Shown in pieces: positions 10,717 to 20,486 of a stretch of 21,101 nucleotides of DNA (positions are counted from its first letter, which is position 1; every line of letters begins with the position of its first letter). Origin of the DNA: a virus. Position numbers and translations under genes: made by a program. The notes below the pieces were generated by a model. The model saw only the letters and a list, made by a program, of their open reading frames with translations. It was not told the origin of the DNA and made no database searches. The stretch lies in UHGV virus genome UHGV-1793583; one strand, given 5' to 3'.

Positions 10717-11985
10717 GTGAATAAAGAACTGATTCAGGTTAATACCAAATTAACCGCTAATACCATCCGCAGGGAAACATATAACGGGCGAGAACACATC
10801 GTGGTCCCGTCTTATACGTTGCCCTTCAATATCGTTATGAATCGGGAATATTACCCGGAAGCCGAAATCATTGCTAATTATCAATCTCTGGAAGGTACGC
10901 TTGCACCGCTGGGCCATCCTACGGTTAACGGTGAATTTGTTTCCGCATTTAGCCCTGAAGGTCTGAATATTGGCTTTTGTGGCGCATGGAACAGGAATGT
11001 TGAATTACGCGGCAACCGTGTTTATGTGGAAAAATGGGTGGATGTTGAAACAGCCAGCCATTCAGAACAGGGGCGCGAATTATTAAGCCGACTCGAAGCA
11101 CTGGAAAAAGGCGAAAGCAAAGATCCGATCTGGTCATCTGTTGCCGTATATCGCCAGCGTATGCCAGCCACCGAAGAGATGAAAGCGCAGGGCGCTGACA
11201 GCGTTGTCAAAATCATGTCAATTGACCATGACGCCATCTTACTACATGAACCGCCAGCCGCATCGCCAGAACAGGGCGTTGGCCTGATGGTTAACACTGA
11301 CCAGGCTAAGCCGTTAATGGCGGTGGCAATGAAAGAAAATAGCTATCGCACGCTTGAAAAACAATTGGAAGAAGCTGCGCGTAAACTGTTCCCAGATGCA
11401 GATTATGTCTATGTCGTGGACTTCACTGATAAAGAAGTGACCATTGCCACTAATGCCGAAAGTGCTCAAGTTTGCACGTATGAAAAACAGGCTGATAAAA
11501 TAATTCTCAATAATGGCGAGCTTGCAACCAATGAGGAAAGTAAATCATGGTTCGCTCAGTTCGCTGAACACCTATCCAGTCTTTTCTCACTAAGTGAAAA
11601 AATTAAGGCCAATAAATCGGAGGACGATCCCATGCCTTTGACCAAAGAAGAACGCGCCGAACTGGTAAAAGAAATTAACGAAAGTATTACCGCTAATATG
11701 GCTAATGCAATCGCTGAAGCACTTAAACCAGTACAAGCAAGCGTTGAAGAATTACAGACCAATCAGAAAGCGATTAAAGAAGAGATCGCAGCAAACGCAA
11801 ATAAAGAAGAAGCAGAAAAACGCGCCGCAGTAGCAAAAGTACACGGCGAAATTGTTGCTAACGCATTAAGTGGTGAAGCGTTAGAAGCAATGTTTAAATC
11901 CCTGGGCAAAGCCGCACCGATGGCAACCAACGCAGCAAGCGAAGGTAAAAAAGGCGAAGTCCCGGACTTTAACACCTATTTTTAA
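10717..11985 (+). CDS. putative scaffolding protein (422 aa)
   Basis: Sits between head morphogenesis and capsid genes; C-terminal third is Ala/Glu/Lys-rich helical repeat; GTG 10717 chosen 8 nt after GGGAG. Confidence 0.55.
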   Translation: MNKELIQVNTKLTANTIRRETYNGREHIVVPSYTLPFNIVMNREYYPEAEIIANYQSLEGTLAPLGHPTVNGEFVSAFSPEGLNIGFCGAWNRNVELRGNRVYVEKWVDVETASHSEQGRELLSRLEALEKGESKDPIWSSVAVYRQRMPATEEMKAQGADSVVKIMSIDHDAILLHEPPAASPEQGVGLMVNTDQAKPLMAVAMKENSYRTLEKQLEEAARKLFPDADYVYVVDFTDKEVTIATNAESAQVCTYEKQADKIILNNGELATNEESKSWFAQFAEHLSSLFSLSEKIKANKSEDDPMPLTKEERAELVKEINESITANMANAIAEALKPVQASVEELQTNQKAIKEEIAANANKEEAEKRAAVAKVHGEIVANALSGEALEAMFKSLGKAAPMATNAASEGKKGEVPDFNTYF

Positions 11986-15374: not shown

Positions 15375-15851
15375 ATGTCTCAGACTTGTGATAAAGGTTC
15401 GTTCTTAGGCCGCGACGTTGCCGTATTTTACGCTATCGCTTGCCCTAATGCGAAACCTAATGACGAAGCATATAAAGCGTTAGGCATGATGCGTGGTAAA
15501 TCTCTTTCCGTAGAATGGGAAACCGCAGACGCCACCGCTGACAAATCAGCAGACTACACCAAAGAATCACTGGTAACTTACAAGTCCGTTTCCTTCTCAG
15601 GTGACGGCGTATCCCGCACAGAAGCGCTTCACAATCAGAAAGAGTTGAAACGCCACGTTATTAACCCGGGTGAGGTAACTGGTTCTCAGCCAATCGTATG
15701 GTTAAAAATTGTTTCTCCGCTTGATGTGACTGAAGGCCCGTTTCTTTGCACTTCCTTTAAAGAAGAAGATCCGCATGACGATGTGTCCACCTGGTCCATT
15801 GAATGCGAAAGCGCTGGCAAGGTTACAGTAGCTGACGTTCCGGCGGCGTAA
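15375..15851 (+). CDS. major tail (tube) protein (158 aa)
   Basis: AAGAGG RBS; followed by intrinsic terminator and chaperone/tape-measure genes. Confidence 0.6.
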   Translation: MSQTCDKGSFLGRDVAVFYAIACPNAKPNDEAYKALGMMRGKSLSVEWETADATADKSADYTKESLVTYKSVSFSGDGVSRTEALHNQKELKRHVINPGEVTGSQPIVWLKIVSPLDVTEGPFLCTSFKEEDPHDDVSTWSIECESAGKVTVADVPAA

Positions 15852-15905: not shown

Positions 15906-16583
15906 ATGATTCATGTTCGAACAGGACAATTTGCGGCTGTGGTTGATGGCAGGAGGTATGTGTTCAATCCCTGCTTTGCTGCAATGGCTAAGATCGGCAG
16001 TGACAGGGAACTGGTCGAATACTTCGCAACTGTGCACGGTGGCAAATACCCACAGCGTTTGCCAACAGATCCAGACCTCCGCAATCGCATTATGGCGCGT
16101 TGTTATGGTGAACTGGTGCAAACGTCCATCCACATATTGAAATGTTGCTCAGAATGCGAAATAGGCCCGTTATTGGGCGAATGTAGCTTTACTCCTTCGG
16201 GTAAGTTGAGACTGAAACCTGGATTGATGCCCACCAGCGACGTCATCACACTAGCGCAACACTGCATGTTCCACGGTTTAATTGGTGACGGACCAGATGA
16301 AGACGCTGGCGAGAAACAGGATGGCGACTATAAACAGACGTTTGACATCCTTGAATATGTTTACTCCGCCGTTGCTCACCTGGGATTGTCTGAATCTGAA
16401 GCATGGGGCATGACAATGACCGGATACAGGGCCGCTGTACGCGCTAAAACGCCACCAGACGAAAGAAACGAGAAAGGTAAACCAAACGTTCATATAAATA
16501 AACGTGATTATGATGAGCAAATGGGAGCGGCTAAAAGGGTGCTGGAATTGATGAAAAAACGCGAGCAAGAAAAAGCCAGGTAG
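15906..16583 (+). CDS. putative tail assembly chaperone (225 aa)
   Basis: Between tail tube and tape measure genes; ATG 15906 with AAGGTGA 5 nt upstream; track start 15867 lies inside the terminator hairpin. Confidence 0.5.
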   Translation: MIHVRTGQFAAVVDGRRYVFNPCFAAMAKIGSDRELVEYFATVHGGKYPQRLPTDPDLRNRIMARCYGELVQTSIHILKCCSECEIGPLLGECSFTPSGKLRLKPGLMPTSDVITLAQHCMFHGLIGDGPDEDAGEKQDGDYKQTFDILEYVYSAVAHLGLSESEAWGMTMTGYRAAVRAKTPPDERNEKGKPNVHINKRDYDEQMGAAKRVLELMKKREQEKAR

Positions 16584-16591
16584 AACCTGGC
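16566..16591 (-). terminator. intrinsic terminator for minus-strand moron 1
   Basis: 7-bp stem GCCAGGT/ACCTGGC with 3-nt loop; on minus strand followed by TTTTTCTT; overlaps stop codon of plus-strand chaperone gene. Confidence 0.5.
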
Positions 16592-16626
16592 GTTATATGT
16601 CGATGATGCTTTTTTGATAGTGCTCA

Positions 16627-17043
16627 TTATCTGATCCTTACATTTTCAATTCTGCCGTTACCTAAATCAACGATAGCATGATTTTTTACACCCGCGCCGC
16701 CTTCGTTAGATATTCTTTCAGCAAATGCGGCTTTATCAGCGTTGCACTCGTTGGCTATTCTGTTTCTTATTTCATTGTTACCTTCGAATACGACACCTAC
16801 AGCAGCCTCCATCACAAGCCCATAATTAAACCATCTTGCATAAACTGGTTTACCTTCGAAATGCTTGTCAATTGCTTTATAAAAAACCTTGATGGCTTCG
16901 GGTTCCTTCTTGAAAATTTTATGGTATTCGGCAACGTTATTTGCTACTTCATCGCAGTTTATATTTATTACATCGTTTGCATTTGCGTTGAATGCCAAAC
17001 CAACCATTACCGCCATCATTGCCGCTCTAATTAACCGTTTCAT
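16627..17043 (-). CDS. secreted moron protein with Sec-type signal peptide (138 aa)
   Basis: Reverse strand inside forward tail operon; N-terminus MKRLIRAAMMAVMVGLAFNANA, no lipobox; GGGTGAG RBS; own promoter and terminator. Confidence 0.65.
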   Translation of the reverse strand: MKRLIRAAMMAVMVGLAFNANANDVININCDEVANNVAEYHKIFKKEPEAIKVFYKAIDKHFEGKPVYARWFNYGLVMEAAVGVVFEGNNEIRNRIANECNADKAAFAERISNEGGAGVKNHAIVDLGNGRIENVRIR

Positions 17044-17055
17044 AACTCACCCAGC

Positions 17056-17142
17056 TTAGTTTTTGTTTTTAAGTGCTTTCAGCATTTCCTCGATGAAGTC
17101 TGCATAACGCTCATGCTCGTTTGGTCGGCAGTAGTTTTTCAT
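17056..17142 (-). CDS. small upstream ORF (28 aa, MKNYCRPNEHERYADFIEEMLKALKNKN), not in track
   Basis: AAGAGGA 7 nt upstream of ATG; stop 13 nt before the secreted-protein ATG. Confidence 0.3.
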   Translation of the reverse strand: MKNYCRPNEHERYADFIEEMLKALKNKN

Positions 17143-17218
17143 TTTCTTATCCTCTTTTGCTTCCTCCGGTTCATCCGGCCTTCTGAATCCATTCACTCAA
17201 TCCCTTTCCTTTGACTTA

Positions 17219-17247
17219 CTTATACAAAATGTATTCGTTGAAGTGAA
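17219..17247 (-). promoter_or_regulatory. sigma70-like promoter for moron 1 (-35 TTCACT, 17-bp spacer, -10 TATAAG)
   Basis: -35 is reverse complement of 17242-17247, -10 of 17219-17224; -35 overlaps the GTGAAGCCATTTTGTA motif. Confidence 0.4.
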
Positions 17248-17299
17248 GCCATTTTGTATAGAATAGAGATCTAGATCACAATTTTCATGAGGTTAAATC

Positions 17300-19639
17300 A
17301 TGGCTACCAGTTTAGGTACAATTTATTACGAAGTCGATGCAAAAACTGGTCAGCTTCTTGTCGCTCAACGACAGGCAGACCAGGCATTTGACAGTATAGA
17401 GCGCGGCGCGAAACGCGCTGACCGCCAGGTAAACACGTTTAAGACTTCAATCAAAGCACTGTCCAGGGTTATCCATTTGCTACTTGCTGCGGAGGCGGTG
17501 CGCCAGTTTATTGACATGGCGGAGCAAGCAAAAATGCTTCGCGTAAAAATCAAATTGCTTACAGGTGATGCAGAGGTCGCGGGACGTGTTTTCGATGGCC
17601 TGAAAGAAATATCAAAAGAAACCGGGCAAAGCCTGAAGGATACTGGCGAACTATGGCAGGGCCTGGCTATCTCACTGAATAACACGTCAGCTACGGATGG
17701 TCAATTGCTTAACCTGGTTGGCACGATTCAAAAGATGGGGGCGTTAGGCGGCGCGTCAGCGGAACAGATGTCTAATTCTATGCGCCAGTTCCGCCAGTCT
17801 ATAGACGGTGGCGTTCTTCGTGCCGAAGAGTTTAACAGTCTGCTTGAAAACACGCCGACCATCGTACAGACAATGGCCCGCCATATGGGGTTGTCAATGG
17901 GTCAGTTCCGCGCCGAAATGCTGGACGGCAAGATCACGGCTGAAAGGATGGTTAACGCGATCCAGGCAGCTACACAGGAAACAAACGAGAAGTTTGCACA
18001 GTTGCCTCGCACATCCGGCAAGGCTATCAATGAGCTTAAAGTAGAGGTGATGGGGCTTGTTGAGCAACTGGATGATCTTTTCGGTGTATCAGATGGCGTT
18101 GTGTCAGCTATCGACCTAATAACTGGCGGCGTTGAGGGATTAGGTAAAGGTGCAAAATTCGCCGCAACCTGTTTCAATACACTCAAAACCGCTGGCAGCG
18201 AGTTTATAGACATGTTTGACGACGTTGCTGTTAAAGCTGGTGAGGTGGCGGAAGAGATTATTAGGATGGTAACGCCAATAAAAGCGCTAATGGATGGCCA
18301 CAAATGGATGAAGGAGATCATTGATAAACGCAAGGAAGAGCTAAACAGCAATAACGAGAAGAAATTCGGCCCCACCATTGGCAAATTCATGACGTTTAAG
18401 AATGACATCGAAAAAGCAACTGCCGCTTATGATGAGTTCATGCAGAAACAGGGTGAGGCTAACGATGGCAAGATCACCGGATTCGATCAGCCAGTTGGTA
18501 AGCCGAAAAAACCGAAAAAACAAAAGAAATCTGAAGCTGATCGGCTTGGTGATGAAGGTGTAAAAGTGTCCGACCAGTACAACAAGGAAGCCGCCGCTAA
18601 GCGTAAAGCACTGGAGAACGGCAAGGCCATTGATGCTGCATTCGCCAAGGGAAAAATAACCCTCCTTGAGTACAAGGCCGCGCAGAAAGGGATAGGCAAG
18701 GAACTGAAGGACGAATTGGCCCAAATCCCGGTGGAAGAATTGCAAGACAAATGGGCGCACATAGTAAGCCCAATGGATCAACTTAAGGGCGAAATTGACC
18801 CCATCAAACAGGTGCAGAATGAGTGGGCCGTCAAAAAACAAATGCTGATAGACCTGGGCGCTACAGAAGCGCAACAGAAACAGGCGCTTTTGGAATATGA
18901 GCAACAGATACGAGATCTGAAGTGGGAACAATGGCAGGCGCAAAGCGACACGAATAGCCTAATCGGTGCTTGTGTTAGTGGCCTAAAAGGTGGCATGGGT
19001 AATGCTCTCACCGGCCTGTTAAACGGTACTCAATCATTAAGCGAGGTTTTCGCCAACCTGGGAAGCAGTATCCTCAATACCGTTGGCAACAAACTATCAG
19101 AGATTGCCGCTAACTGGATAGCAGATCAATTGATGATGGAAACGCAAAGCAAGGCTACCCAGGCAAGTACAACTGCTGGCGCTGTGGCGGCGCAAGGCCA
19201 GATTGCGGCGGCGGCGGCCCCGGCTGCGGCTGCAACGGCTGCGTCAACTGGTGGTAGCTGGGCTGCGGCTGGTGCTGCGGCACTTTCTGCGATCATTTCG
19301 CTGGCAACATCAATTTTTGGCGGCGGGCGTTATAATGGTGGTTCTGTTAATGGTGGAAGTCTGTATCGAGTAGGGGAACACGGAATACCTGAGCTATTCC
19401 AGACGAGCAACGGGCGTCAGTATATGATTCCAGGCGAGAATGGTAGGGTAATTCCTGGTCGCGATCTCTTCAGTGGTGGCGGCATCAATATGCCTGTTAA
19501 CATCACCGTTCAGACCACAAACGGGTTTAGCGACGATGATAGTCGCAGGCTTGAACAGACAATGGAACGCGTAGCAATGAAAATGATGGCAAGGGAATCA
19601 CAACGCCCTGGAGGAATGTTGCAACCTCGCCGCAAATAA
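17300..19639 (+). CDS. tail tape measure protein (779 aa)
   Basis: Largest ORF; helical charged N-terminal and central regions; Gly/Ala-rich hydrophobic C-terminal segment; follows chaperone. Confidence 0.9.
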   Translation: MATSLGTIYYEVDAKTGQLLVAQRQADQAFDSIERGAKRADRQVNTFKTSIKALSRVIHLLLAAEAVRQFIDMAEQAKMLRVKIKLLTGDAEVAGRVFDGLKEISKETGQSLKDTGELWQGLAISLNNTSATDGQLLNLVGTIQKMGALGGASAEQMSNSMRQFRQSIDGGVLRAEEFNSLLENTPTIVQTMARHMGLSMGQFRAEMLDGKITAERMVNAIQAATQETNEKFAQLPRTSGKAINELKVEVMGLVEQLDDLFGVSDGVVSAIDLITGGVEGLGKGAKFAATCFNTLKTAGSEFIDMFDDVAVKAGEVAEEIIRMVTPIKALMDGHKWMKEIIDKRKEELNSNNEKKFGPTIGKFMTFKNDIEKATAAYDEFMQKQGEANDGKITGFDQPVGKPKKPKKQKKSEADRLGDEGVKVSDQYNKEAAAKRKALENGKAIDAAFAKGKITLLEYKAAQKGIGKELKDELAQIPVEELQDKWAHIVSPMDQLKGEIDPIKQVQNEWAVKKQMLIDLGATEAQQKQALLEYEQQIRDLKWEQWQAQSDTNSLIGACVSGLKGGMGNALTGLLNGTQSLSEVFANLGSSILNTVGNKLSEIAANWIADQLMMETQSKATQASTTAGAVAAQGQIAAAAAPAAAATAASTGGSWAAAGAAALSAIISLATSIFGGGRYNGGSVNGGSLYRVGEHGIPELFQTSNGRQYMIPGENGRVIPGRDLFSGGGINMPVNITVQTTNGFSDDDSRRLEQTMERVAMKMMARESQRPGGMLQPRRK

Positions 19640-19643
19640 ACTA

Positions 19644-19673
19644 AACCCCGGTACAATGCCGGGGTTATCTTTT
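19644..19673. terminator. bidirectional intrinsic terminator (AACCCCGG-loop-CCGGGGTT)
   Basis: 8-bp stem, 7-nt loop; T-rich on plus side (ATCTTTT) and on minus side (TAGTTTATTT); between TMP stop and minus-strand cassette. Confidence 0.55.
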
Positions 19674-19968
19674 AGTTATTCTCAAAACTTGTATATCCTC
19701 TCTCAATTTTCCCTCCATGTACACTTCTGGCAAATACCGCGTCAGTATACCTAAAAAAATGGACACGTATATGTATCCCCTTTACTATCCATATATTTTA
19801 GCACCCATGCCATGCGTTTTACGTTGCTTTTATTTGCCGGGTTTTTCATTTTATTTTCCTCCGCAAATCACAATCTTCCGTTTCTTGCTGTATAGCTGCG
19901 AGCAAACATCACCTGCCAGATGTTCCAGATCTCCATCCAGGTGAATTTATCGTCATCCATATTTCACC

Positions 19969-20223
19969 TCATTTATGTGCCCCTTTTACGCCACAGTGGC
20001 GGTTGTATTCCAGATGGTCAATAATTAACCACATCTTTAGATCTTCGCTGAATAACCGCCAATCGGGGTTGATGTCAAATTTATAACCGTAGCCATCGCG
20101 TAATTTTTTGGGGTTGGCCTCTTTTTTCAGGAAAGCGTTTAATAAGGCCTTGCCCTTTTTGATGATCCGGTCCTGTGCGTTTTTCTGTGCTTTCAGGTTT
20201 TTACCAATCGCCACCAATTTCAT
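19969..20223 (-). CDS. small basic protein of unknown function (84 aa)
   Basis: Reverse-strand ORF; ATG at 20223 preferred (GGGGTGGG RBS); Lys-rich; second gene of two-gene minus cassette. Confidence 0.5.
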   Translation of the reverse strand: MKLVAIGKNLKAQKNAQDRIIKKGKALLNAFLKKEANPKKLRDGYGYKFDINPDWRLFSEDLKMWLIIDHLEYNRHCGVKGAHK

Positions 20224-20241
20224 AACCCACCCCACAATCCA

Positions 20242-20397
20242 TTAGCTGACCACTTTCAGGAAGAAATCACGGTATTCATCTTCTTTTGCATTCATCATGA
20301 ATTGACCGTATTTGAATGCGTCATCGAAGCCTTTTACAATCGCCACTTCCACCTGTTCGAATGCGTTGTTCAGCATTACCACTACATAGCGTTTCAT
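20242..20397 (-). CDS. small acidic protein of unknown function (51 aa, MKRYVVVMLNNAFEQVEVAIVKGFDDAFKYGQFMMNAKEDEYRDFFLKVVS)
   Basis: ATG at 20397 with AGGAGGGG RBS; first gene of minus cassette; 18-nt gap to downstream basic-protein gene. Confidence 0.45.
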   Translation of the reverse strand: MKRYVVVMLNNAFEQVEVAIVKGFDDAFKYGQFMMNAKEDEYRDFFLKVVS

Positions 20398-20439
20398 GAT
20401 GCCCCTCCTTTGTTGGTACTGCTTTCTCTTCTTGCTTCC

Positions 20440-20468
20440 TATATACATCTTGTTACGTCCTGTGTGAA
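20440..20468 (-). promoter_or_regulatory. sigma70-like promoter for moron 2 (-35 TTCACA, 17-bp spacer, -10 TATATA)
   Basis: -35 is reverse complement of 20463-20468, -10 of 20440-20445; -35 overlaps the GTGAAGCCATTTTGTA motif. Confidence 0.45.
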
Positions 20469-20486
20469 GCCATTTTGTAAACTGGG

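Follow-up and report, generated by a model that had tools for sequence, protein, structure and literature searches.

The 21,101-nucleotide stretch of viral DNA examined here, UHGV virus genome UHGV-1793583 (hereafter the window, at its full length), carries a two-gene unit on the minus strand at 16566–17260, located between the plus-strand genes of a DUF6246 protein and of the tape measure protein (TMP). The unit runs from a promoter-like site through an open reading frame (ORF) of 28 amino acids (aa), 12 nucleotides (nt), an ORF of 138 aa and a further 36 nt to a hairpin. Both ORFs are under selection, the longer one is accessory and is exchanged as a cassette between related phages, and the promoter module is repeated elsewhere in the genome. 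The unit is probably a genuine moron, that is, an accessory and horizontally exchanged element reversed between the DUF6246 and TMP genes, and its proposed mechanism is as follows. A sigma-70 promoter with an upstream TATACAAAATGG would fire leftwards from the edge of the TMP gene and give a bicistronic RNA of about 650 nt ending at the hairpin that covers the stop of the DUF6246 gene. This RNA would encode a conserved cytoplasmic peptide of 28 aa and a preprotein of 138 aa, the latter to be exported by Sec and cut by signal peptidase I after Ala22. The product would be a periplasmic protein of 13 kDa with an alpha+beta fold and, probably, a Cys30–Cys100 disulfide, and the unit itself would represent one allele of a cassette slot in which unrelated envelope-targeted mature domains are exchanged inside a constant frame. 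The element is a well-known kind of prophage addition and not a new kind of system. The gene is an ordinary, well-formed moron, and the cassette architecture of the slot is more interesting than the 138-aa gene alone.

Cassette exchange at the DUF6246–TMP junction

The window is the late region of a mEpimmI-type (mEp021/mEp010-like) temperate coliphage. Positions 16566–17300 (735 nt) are 99.2% identical to a prophage of E. coli WCHEC025970, and to phages mEp010 and mEp021 the window shows an identity of about 90%. The slot was compared in 60 related loci, drawn from 57 viral-contig loci fetched with the DUF6246 protein and from four phage records. In the 48 mEpimmI-type loci the gap between the two flanking genes measures 646–1278 nt and always holds minus-strand cargo, which belongs to at least five unrelated types that also occur in combination. 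Two distant relatives are without an insert, the DUF6246 and TMP ORFs abutting in L058 and being separated by the same minimal gap in L059. Type A, present at 17 loci, is the 137–139-aa protein of the window, type B a secreted protein of 116–119 aa unrelated to A, type C a membrane pair of 35 aa plus 100 aa, type D a VasI/TagO-family lipoprotein of 219 aa accompanied by a protein of 106 aa or a lipoprotein of 124 aa, and type E a secreted protein of 165 aa, all encoded on the minus strand. Nearly all of this cargo is envelope-targeted. In the types other than A, the N-terminus at the corresponding position resembles the type A signal peptide or is a lipoprotein signal (LVGC), in keeping with export. 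Since sister phages with other cargo are viable, the cargo gene is accessory.

The cargo type is shuffled in relation to the flanks. A type C locus (L007) shares 97.7% TMP identity and 95% DUF6246 identity with the window, and some type A loci share only 88% TMP identity with it. Similarly, the association of cargo type with the TMP N-terminus or the phage receptor is weak, as expected from linkage, and has clear counter-examples; mEp021 (OmpA) and mEp010 (LamB) both carry type A.

The frame that surrounds the cargo is, in contrast to the variable cargo, constant, and it comprises the terminator, the small ORF (34 of the 48 loci), the 5' untranslated region (UTR) with a stem-loop and, in all loci, the promoter block. 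The predicted intrinsic terminator (16566..16591, minus strand) is formed by GCCAGG-TTCTA-CCTGGC followed by the T-tract TTTTTCTT. Its hairpin, at 16575–16591, has a G+C-rich stem of 7 bp, a 3-nt loop and a centroid energy of −11.9 kcal/mol. It encloses the plus-strand TAG stop of the DUF6246 gene (16581–16583), whose last codons, read on the opposite strand, form the 3' arm and the T-tract. Irrespective of cargo type, a hairpin is present in 24 distinct sequences from related loci, and its stem displays a compensatory double change, GCCAGG/CCTGGC in the window versus GCCCGG/CCGGGC. An earlier reading of this DNA, made without database searches and referred to here as the sequence-only reading, had assigned to the unit a terminator of its own over the stop codon of the gene in the chaperone position; the minus-strand hairpin, the T-tract and the compensatory change all point to it. 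The small stem-loop of the 5' UTR (CCGG-N5-CCGG, 17166..17178, minus strand) keeps its stem and varies its loop across loci. A search of the unit region against Rfam gave no match.

The constant frame extends into the cargo gene. The type B gene of locus L016 is 88–92% identical to type A over its first 66 nt, which encode the signal peptide, and only 47% identical, the background level, beyond them, and its mature part is closer to other type B genes than its signal peptide is. Because identity drops at this point, one recombination joint lies, on the evidence of the alignment, at the boundary between signal peptide and mature domain, and the signal-peptide codons at the 5' end of the cargo belong, on the same comparison, to the constant frame. 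The G+C content of the unit is 38–41%, against 45–53% in the flanks, and the skews are inverted across it. The sequence-only reading had described a self-contained accessory moron, a description borne out by this dip and by relatives that have no insert or hold unrelated cargo inside the same promoter and terminator.

Two possible relationships of the cargo were examined and rejected. Types A and B are not distant relatives (hhalign probability 0.5%, with BLASTP matching the signal peptide only), and type C is not a relative of HK97 gp15/YebO. The 219-aa lipoprotein of type D matches Pfam PF11319 (E 1.4e-15), bears the RefSeq name TagO and occurs at L017, L022, L027–L032, L039–L042 and other loci; the 124-aa lipoprotein with which it is often paired has a weak BamE-like match. 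Other inserts stand at the same junction in the distant relatives L050, L052, L055, L057 and L060, among them Arc/MetJ-like repressors, a 271-aa antirepressor-like protein, a BamE-like lipoprotein and co-directional small membrane proteins. Because distant relatives carry quite different inserts there, the DUF6246–TMP junction is, by sequence comparison, a recurrent insertion point.

The gene of the left flank (15906..16583, plus strand) is identified by Pfam PF19759 (E 2e-56) and RefSeq annotation as encoding a DUF6246 protein. It is located directly 3' of the tail tube gene (15375–15851, plus strand), another late gene, which is the position of a tail assembly chaperone. Neither similarity of the DUF6246 protein to a known tail assembly chaperone nor a structural relative was found. 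A chaperone role is suggested by gene order alone; thus, the sequence-only reading was right about the position of this neighbour after the tail tube gene, and its word "chaperone", for what is a DUF6246 protein, has that same basis. The right flank is the TMP gene (17300..19639, plus strand; Pfam TMP_3, E 2e-50; PHROG 1538). Between its ribosome-binding site and the moron promoter motif, at 17265–17283, lies the sequence TGTGATC, which includes a Dam GATC site and is kept in all related loci; in the window it is part of the palindrome GATCTAGATC.

Purifying selection on both reading frames

The ORFs, the promoter sequence and the hairpin noticed in the sequence-only reading are all present at the positions given here. 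The 138-aa cargo preprotein is encoded at 16627..17043 on the minus strand, where both the ORF and its translation were confirmed. Among 16 distinct coding sequences the median pairwise dN/dS is 0.09, and synonymous sites are saturated between two subgroups whose proteins remain about 72% identical. This substitution pattern marks the ORF as a real gene under strong purifying selection.

Codons 1–22 (17043..16978, minus strand) encode a signal peptide as judged by signal-peptide rules. The N-terminus reads MKRLIRAAMMAVMVGLAFNANA and continues with Asn-Asp after the predicted cleavage behind A-N-A (Ala22). The n-region MKRLIR carries a charge of +3, the 12-residue core AAMMAVMVGLAF has a mean Kyte-Doolittle value of 2.29, Ala occupies positions −3 and −1, and the layout is kept in homologues. 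The lipobox pattern [LVI][ASTVI][GAS]C has no match in the first 35 residues, and the mature part has no further hydrophobic span, its highest 19-residue window reaching 1.01. The mature protein would comprise 116 aa (13 kDa) with Cys30 and Cys100, both of which are invariant in 16 homologues, where there are 58 invariant columns in all. By classical sequence rules the 138-aa protein is exported by Sec and is of the signal peptidase I type; cleavage after Ala22 and a Cys30–Cys100 disulfide would follow in the periplasm. The Sec signal peptide cut after ANA, the lack of a lipobox and the two mature Cys residues of the sequence-only reading thus conform to these rules. The Asn-Ala repeats of the cleavage region vary among the type A proteins P0010, P0013 and that of L036 (AFNANA, AFNANANA and AFNANANANA), which looks like in-frame slippage at the cleavage site.

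The family is narrowly distributed. The 138-aa protein gave no usable match against Pfam (E up to 1), PHROG, NCBIfam, PADLOC or the PDB in a sequence profile search, and profiles of the Ivy, MliC/PliC and PliG lysozyme inhibitors or of PADLOC defence models did not match it. A word-indexed homologue search returned 17 clusters at 69–90% identity, and those homologues with a named source all come from E. coli or uncultured Caudoviricetes. An exhaustive phmmer search of 1.84 billion representatives retrieved only the protein's own cluster, one fragment and three long repeat proteins. Two of these three additional proteins are EF-hand-like, eukaryote-like repeat proteins aligned over residues 37–74, in which KVFYKAIDKHFEGKPVYARWF is paired with KVLFKELDENSDGGISEKEWLHWF. 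They were rejected as relatives; the invariant FEGKP loop of the cargo lacks calcium ligands, the E-value is inflated by the repeats, and the match is probably a helix-loop-helix resemblance only. A search of 2.9 million viral contigs with the cargo sequence found 15 loci, 14 of them already known through DUF6246, the fifteenth being a short contig of 5.6 kb reached by the cargo sequence alone. Within the databases searched, the 138-aa protein is confined to one slot of the mEpimmI phage group.

The AlphaFold model of the mature protein (pLDDT 86.5, pTM 0.80) is predicted to be alpha+beta, with five helices packed on a three-stranded sheet made of an N-terminal strand and a C-terminal hairpin. 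A search with the model found no informative fold neighbour. The sequence-only reading had said that the protein matches no nameable family, and the empty family, PDB and homologue searches agree with it, as does a confident predicted structure that has no informative neighbour. In mEp021 the cargo is gp63, which does not belong to the proteins marked as structural components of the virion in that phage, and the paper on the mEpimmI phages discusses neither gp63 nor the DUF6246–TMP slot.

The 28-aa gene MKNYCRPNEHERYADFIEEMLKALKNKN (17056..17142, minus strand) is preceded by a GAGGA Shine-Dalgarno sequence at 17150–17154, 7 nt before its ATG. Among 24 distinct coding sequences pN/pS is 0.07 in its own frame, and in the other frames it is 1.4–3.9 in four and 0.23 in one antisense frame. 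The variable sites are distributed 8/3/16 over the three codon positions, and insertions and deletions are of whole codons. These three patterns therefore identify the ORF, on comparative grounds, as a conserved small protein gene in its own right under strong purifying selection. It is present in the 34 loci mentioned above with every cargo type, and most type D loci are without it. Outside the mEpimmI phages none was found by tblastn of 50,697 phage records, and a degenerate DNA pattern of the ORF gave 0 matches when applied to one genome per species. The 46-aa form annotated in RefSeq was ruled out; it is not conserved, because in most relatives an in-frame TAA lies upstream of the ATG. The sequence-only reading had correctly placed a 28-aa ORF with a Shine-Dalgarno sequence ahead of the 138-aa gene. 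Its description as a leader ORF proved too weak, for the amino acids are kept through many synonymous changes and some loci hold cargo behind the same promoter region without the 28-aa ORF. At L010, L025 and L049 a purine-rich insertion of about 93 nt separates the −10 region from the small ORF, and in L010 and L049 it contains a short Lys/Arg-rich ORF of 30–32 aa.

The promoter module and its copies

A candidate sigma-70 promoter, TTCACT-N17-TATAAG, is read at 17247..17219 on the minus strand, and TATACAAAATGG (17249..17260, minus strand) lies directly 5' of its −35 hexamer. Within the intergenic region, conservation is highest in the promoter block. Across related loci the 17-nt spacing is constant, the −35 hexamer conforms to TT[CT]A[CT]T and the −10 hexamer to TATAA[AG] or TATAGA, and neither TATACAAAATGG nor TTTTGTATA varies among 38 distinct related sequences. 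Transcription would start near 17212. The 19-nt pattern T[AT]TACAAAATGG-N-TT[CG]AC[AT] has two exact matches in the window, where 0.17 would be expected, and in mEp021 three exact matches and one with 2 mismatches, where the expectation is 0.03. The exact copies belong to the moron unit, to the promoter of a second reverse-strand island (TTCACA-17-TATATA) and to the early rightward promoter (TTGACT-17-TATATT). In mEp021 (L063) the early rightward promoter occupies 11925–11966, downstream of the repressor gene and before an N-like antiterminator, with TATACAAAATGG one base 5' of the −35 hexamer. A weaker fourth copy of the motif is found in mEp021 at 20076–20094, just after gp33. The unit thus has a candidate promoter of its own, backed by conservation and repetition. 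By its position TATACAAAATGG could correspond to a proximal UP element, which it resembles, or it could serve as a regulator site.

An 11-bp perfect inverted repeat spans the moron promoter, its arms TATACAAAATG and CATTTTGTATA lying at 17221–17231 and 17250–17260 around an 18-nt spacer. The right arm is the TATACAAAATGG region, and the arms are invariant in nearly all of the 38 sequences whereas the spacer is variable. Because only the outer 6 nt are mirrored in the promoter of the second island, the repeat may be incidental to the motif and the −10 region.

The second reverse-strand island (19640–20481, minus strand) adjoins the 3' end of the TMP gene and has the module as its promoter in a second exact copy (TTTACAAAATGGCTTCACA-N17-TATATA). 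Its genes are those of a 51-aa protein (20397..20242) and of a ParE-like toxin (20223..19969; Pfam E 7e-12); a further two short ORFs are present, and a hairpin beside the TMP stop closes the island. The island looks like a moron of the toxin-antitoxin type, and a ParE-like toxin under a sister copy of the module suggests that the module is active in the prophage. A search for operators of Rep021 found only one candidate shared element, ATATCACG, which the early promoter carries in common with the rep-cro intergenic region and which both moron promoters lack. On these indirect signs the unit is rather likely to be expressed in the prophage state.

Possible roles at the cell envelope

The role proposed for the 138-aa protein, by analogy and only tentatively, is protection of the lysogen at the envelope. 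The favoured form is a block on the entry of incoming siphophage genomes after receptor binding, as by HK97 gene 15. If type A excludes phages, it should act after adsorption, because the cargo ignores receptor type and the receptor-level lipoproteins are encoded elsewhere. HK97 gene 15 is the original moron, and gp15 is an inner-membrane protein that blocks entry of the superinfecting phage genome. The two genes occupy the same slot between tail chaperone and TMP, are accessory, have their own terminator and encode products located (here by prediction) in the envelope. In contrast, gp15 is a single-pass inner-membrane protein of 62 aa, encoded co-directionally with the late genes and matching Pfam YebO (PF13974, E 1.2e-8), whereas the 138-aa protein is encoded on the opposite strand behind a 28-aa gene, has a signal peptide of cleavable type without any membrane-spanning segment in the mature part, and matches nothing in Pfam, YebO included, at E values up to 1. 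The 138-aa protein is not of the gp15 family, to judge from these comparisons, but may act comparably from the periplasm.

Cor, T5 Llp and the Lpp021 and Lpp010 proteins of the mEpimmI phages are receptor-blocking prophage lipoproteins, the mEpimmI versions having been experimentally tested. They resemble the 138-aa protein in being exported (in its case by prediction) accessory proteins of prophages, and these lipoproteins act at the envelope and exclude phages. They have a lipobox and are encoded elsewhere (gp81, gp116), whereas the 138-aa protein has none and does not track the receptor. The variable defence and accessory hotspots of temperate phages and their satellites, a published concept, similarly have fixed flanks and cargo that varies between close relatives. 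The present slot differs from them in its constant frame, which includes the promoter, the 28-aa gene and the 5' end encoding the signal peptide, and in its small envelope cargo without PADLOC matches.

T4 Spackle is a small, Sec-exported, mostly helical periplasmic protein of superinfection exclusion that acts after adsorption, and by this description it can be likened to the 138-aa protein.

Several observations weigh against the moron mechanism and the protective role proposed here. The searches gave no link of the cargo, by homology or fold, to exclusion, immunity or inhibitor proteins. The cargo evolves very conservatively with no sign of diversification, whereas factors engaged in an arms race usually differ in this respect. 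The same TMP N-terminus is combined with different cargo types, which gives no indication of a TMP-type-specific target, and tested exclusion lipoproteins are already encoded at other places in the mEpimmI genomes. The −10 hexamer TATAAG is without the usual final T, and a generic promoter scan does not list the site, so that the candidate promoter draws its support from the two features named above. Finally, the unit shares the module with the early rightward promoter, whose activity has to be shut off in a lysogen.

This last point is the core of an alternative that is rather improbable, in which the unit would be an early lytic accessory gene, repressed by Rep021 in the prophage and switched on at infection or induction to remodel the envelope, for secondary-infection exclusion or lysis timing. 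The 12-nt upstream motif, the −35 hexamer and the 17-nt spacing are indeed those of the early promoter beside the repressor gene. However, ATATCACG of the early promoter and rep-cro region is missing from both moron promoters, the sister module drives the ParE-like toxin island, which is most sensible in the prophage state, and the head-on orientation within a late operon is typical of morons expressed from a prophage. The cargo could instead provide periplasmic immunity or protection against type VI secretion effectors, colicins or lysozymes, in a slot that collects orphan envelope-protection genes. Such a function would suit a small, helical product that is exported by the rules and has an invariant Cys pair, and strong purifying selection fits a fixed molecular target; moreover, the cargo type is independent of phage receptor and TMP N-terminus, and the other cargoes include a lipoprotein from VasI/TagO, a family associated with type VI secretion. 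This reading is nevertheless unlikely, as the 138-aa protein has no sequence or fold similarity to a known immunity protein or lysozyme inhibitor, TagO/VasI is itself without known function, and no effector gene lies nearby.

Less probable still is a factor for host fitness or colonisation in gut E. coli, with a periplasmic binding, stress or chaperone-like role unrelated to defence. Many morons encode such factors, purifying selection is strong and the carriers are gut-associated E. coli prophages, but the family is restricted to one phage group and one slot, is present in very few complete E. coli genomes and shows no detected ligand-binding or enzyme family. Finally, the ORFs might have arisen by chance in a region conserved for plus-strand reasons such as TMP regulation. 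A plus-strand ORF of 33 aa, annotated in mEp010, does overlap the small ORF, and the ribosome-binding site of the TMP gene has the conserved inverted repeat a short way 5' of it. The substitution patterns contradict this explanation and leave it very improbable: pN/pS is 0.07 in the minus-strand frame of the small ORF versus 3.9, 0.23 and 2.3 in the plus-strand frames, the cargo combines its low dN/dS with saturated synonymous sites, and viable sister phages have an entirely different cargo.

The moron reading, with lysogen protection as its tentative function, can be carried further into a more speculative and distinctly doubtful proposal. The DUF6246–TMP junction would then be a dedicated platform for the expression of envelope cargo, made of the shared promoter module, the 28-aa protein, the 5' arm encoding the signal peptide and a terminator within the end of the preceding gene. 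Unrelated mature domains would be swapped into it by homologous recombination. Type A would be a periplasmic factor of new fold whose protection of the lysogen sets in once the receptor is bound, for instance through interference with the periplasmic steps of tape-measure-dependent genome entry.

If phage exclusion or envelope protection by type A were true, a soluble periplasmic exclusion factor acting after adsorption, and without a known fold relative, would join a short list of proteins that exclude phages at that stage. The slot is the one in which the first moron, HK97 gene 15, was defined, and it offers a natural experiment in which at least five unrelated cargoes stand behind the same promoter and flanks. 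The phages mEp021, mEp010, mEp044 and mEp515 are in culture and differ in the slot, which makes direct tests practical. The slot is thereby suited to the study of how envelope-acting genes are traded among prophages and of how signal peptides act as recombination joints.

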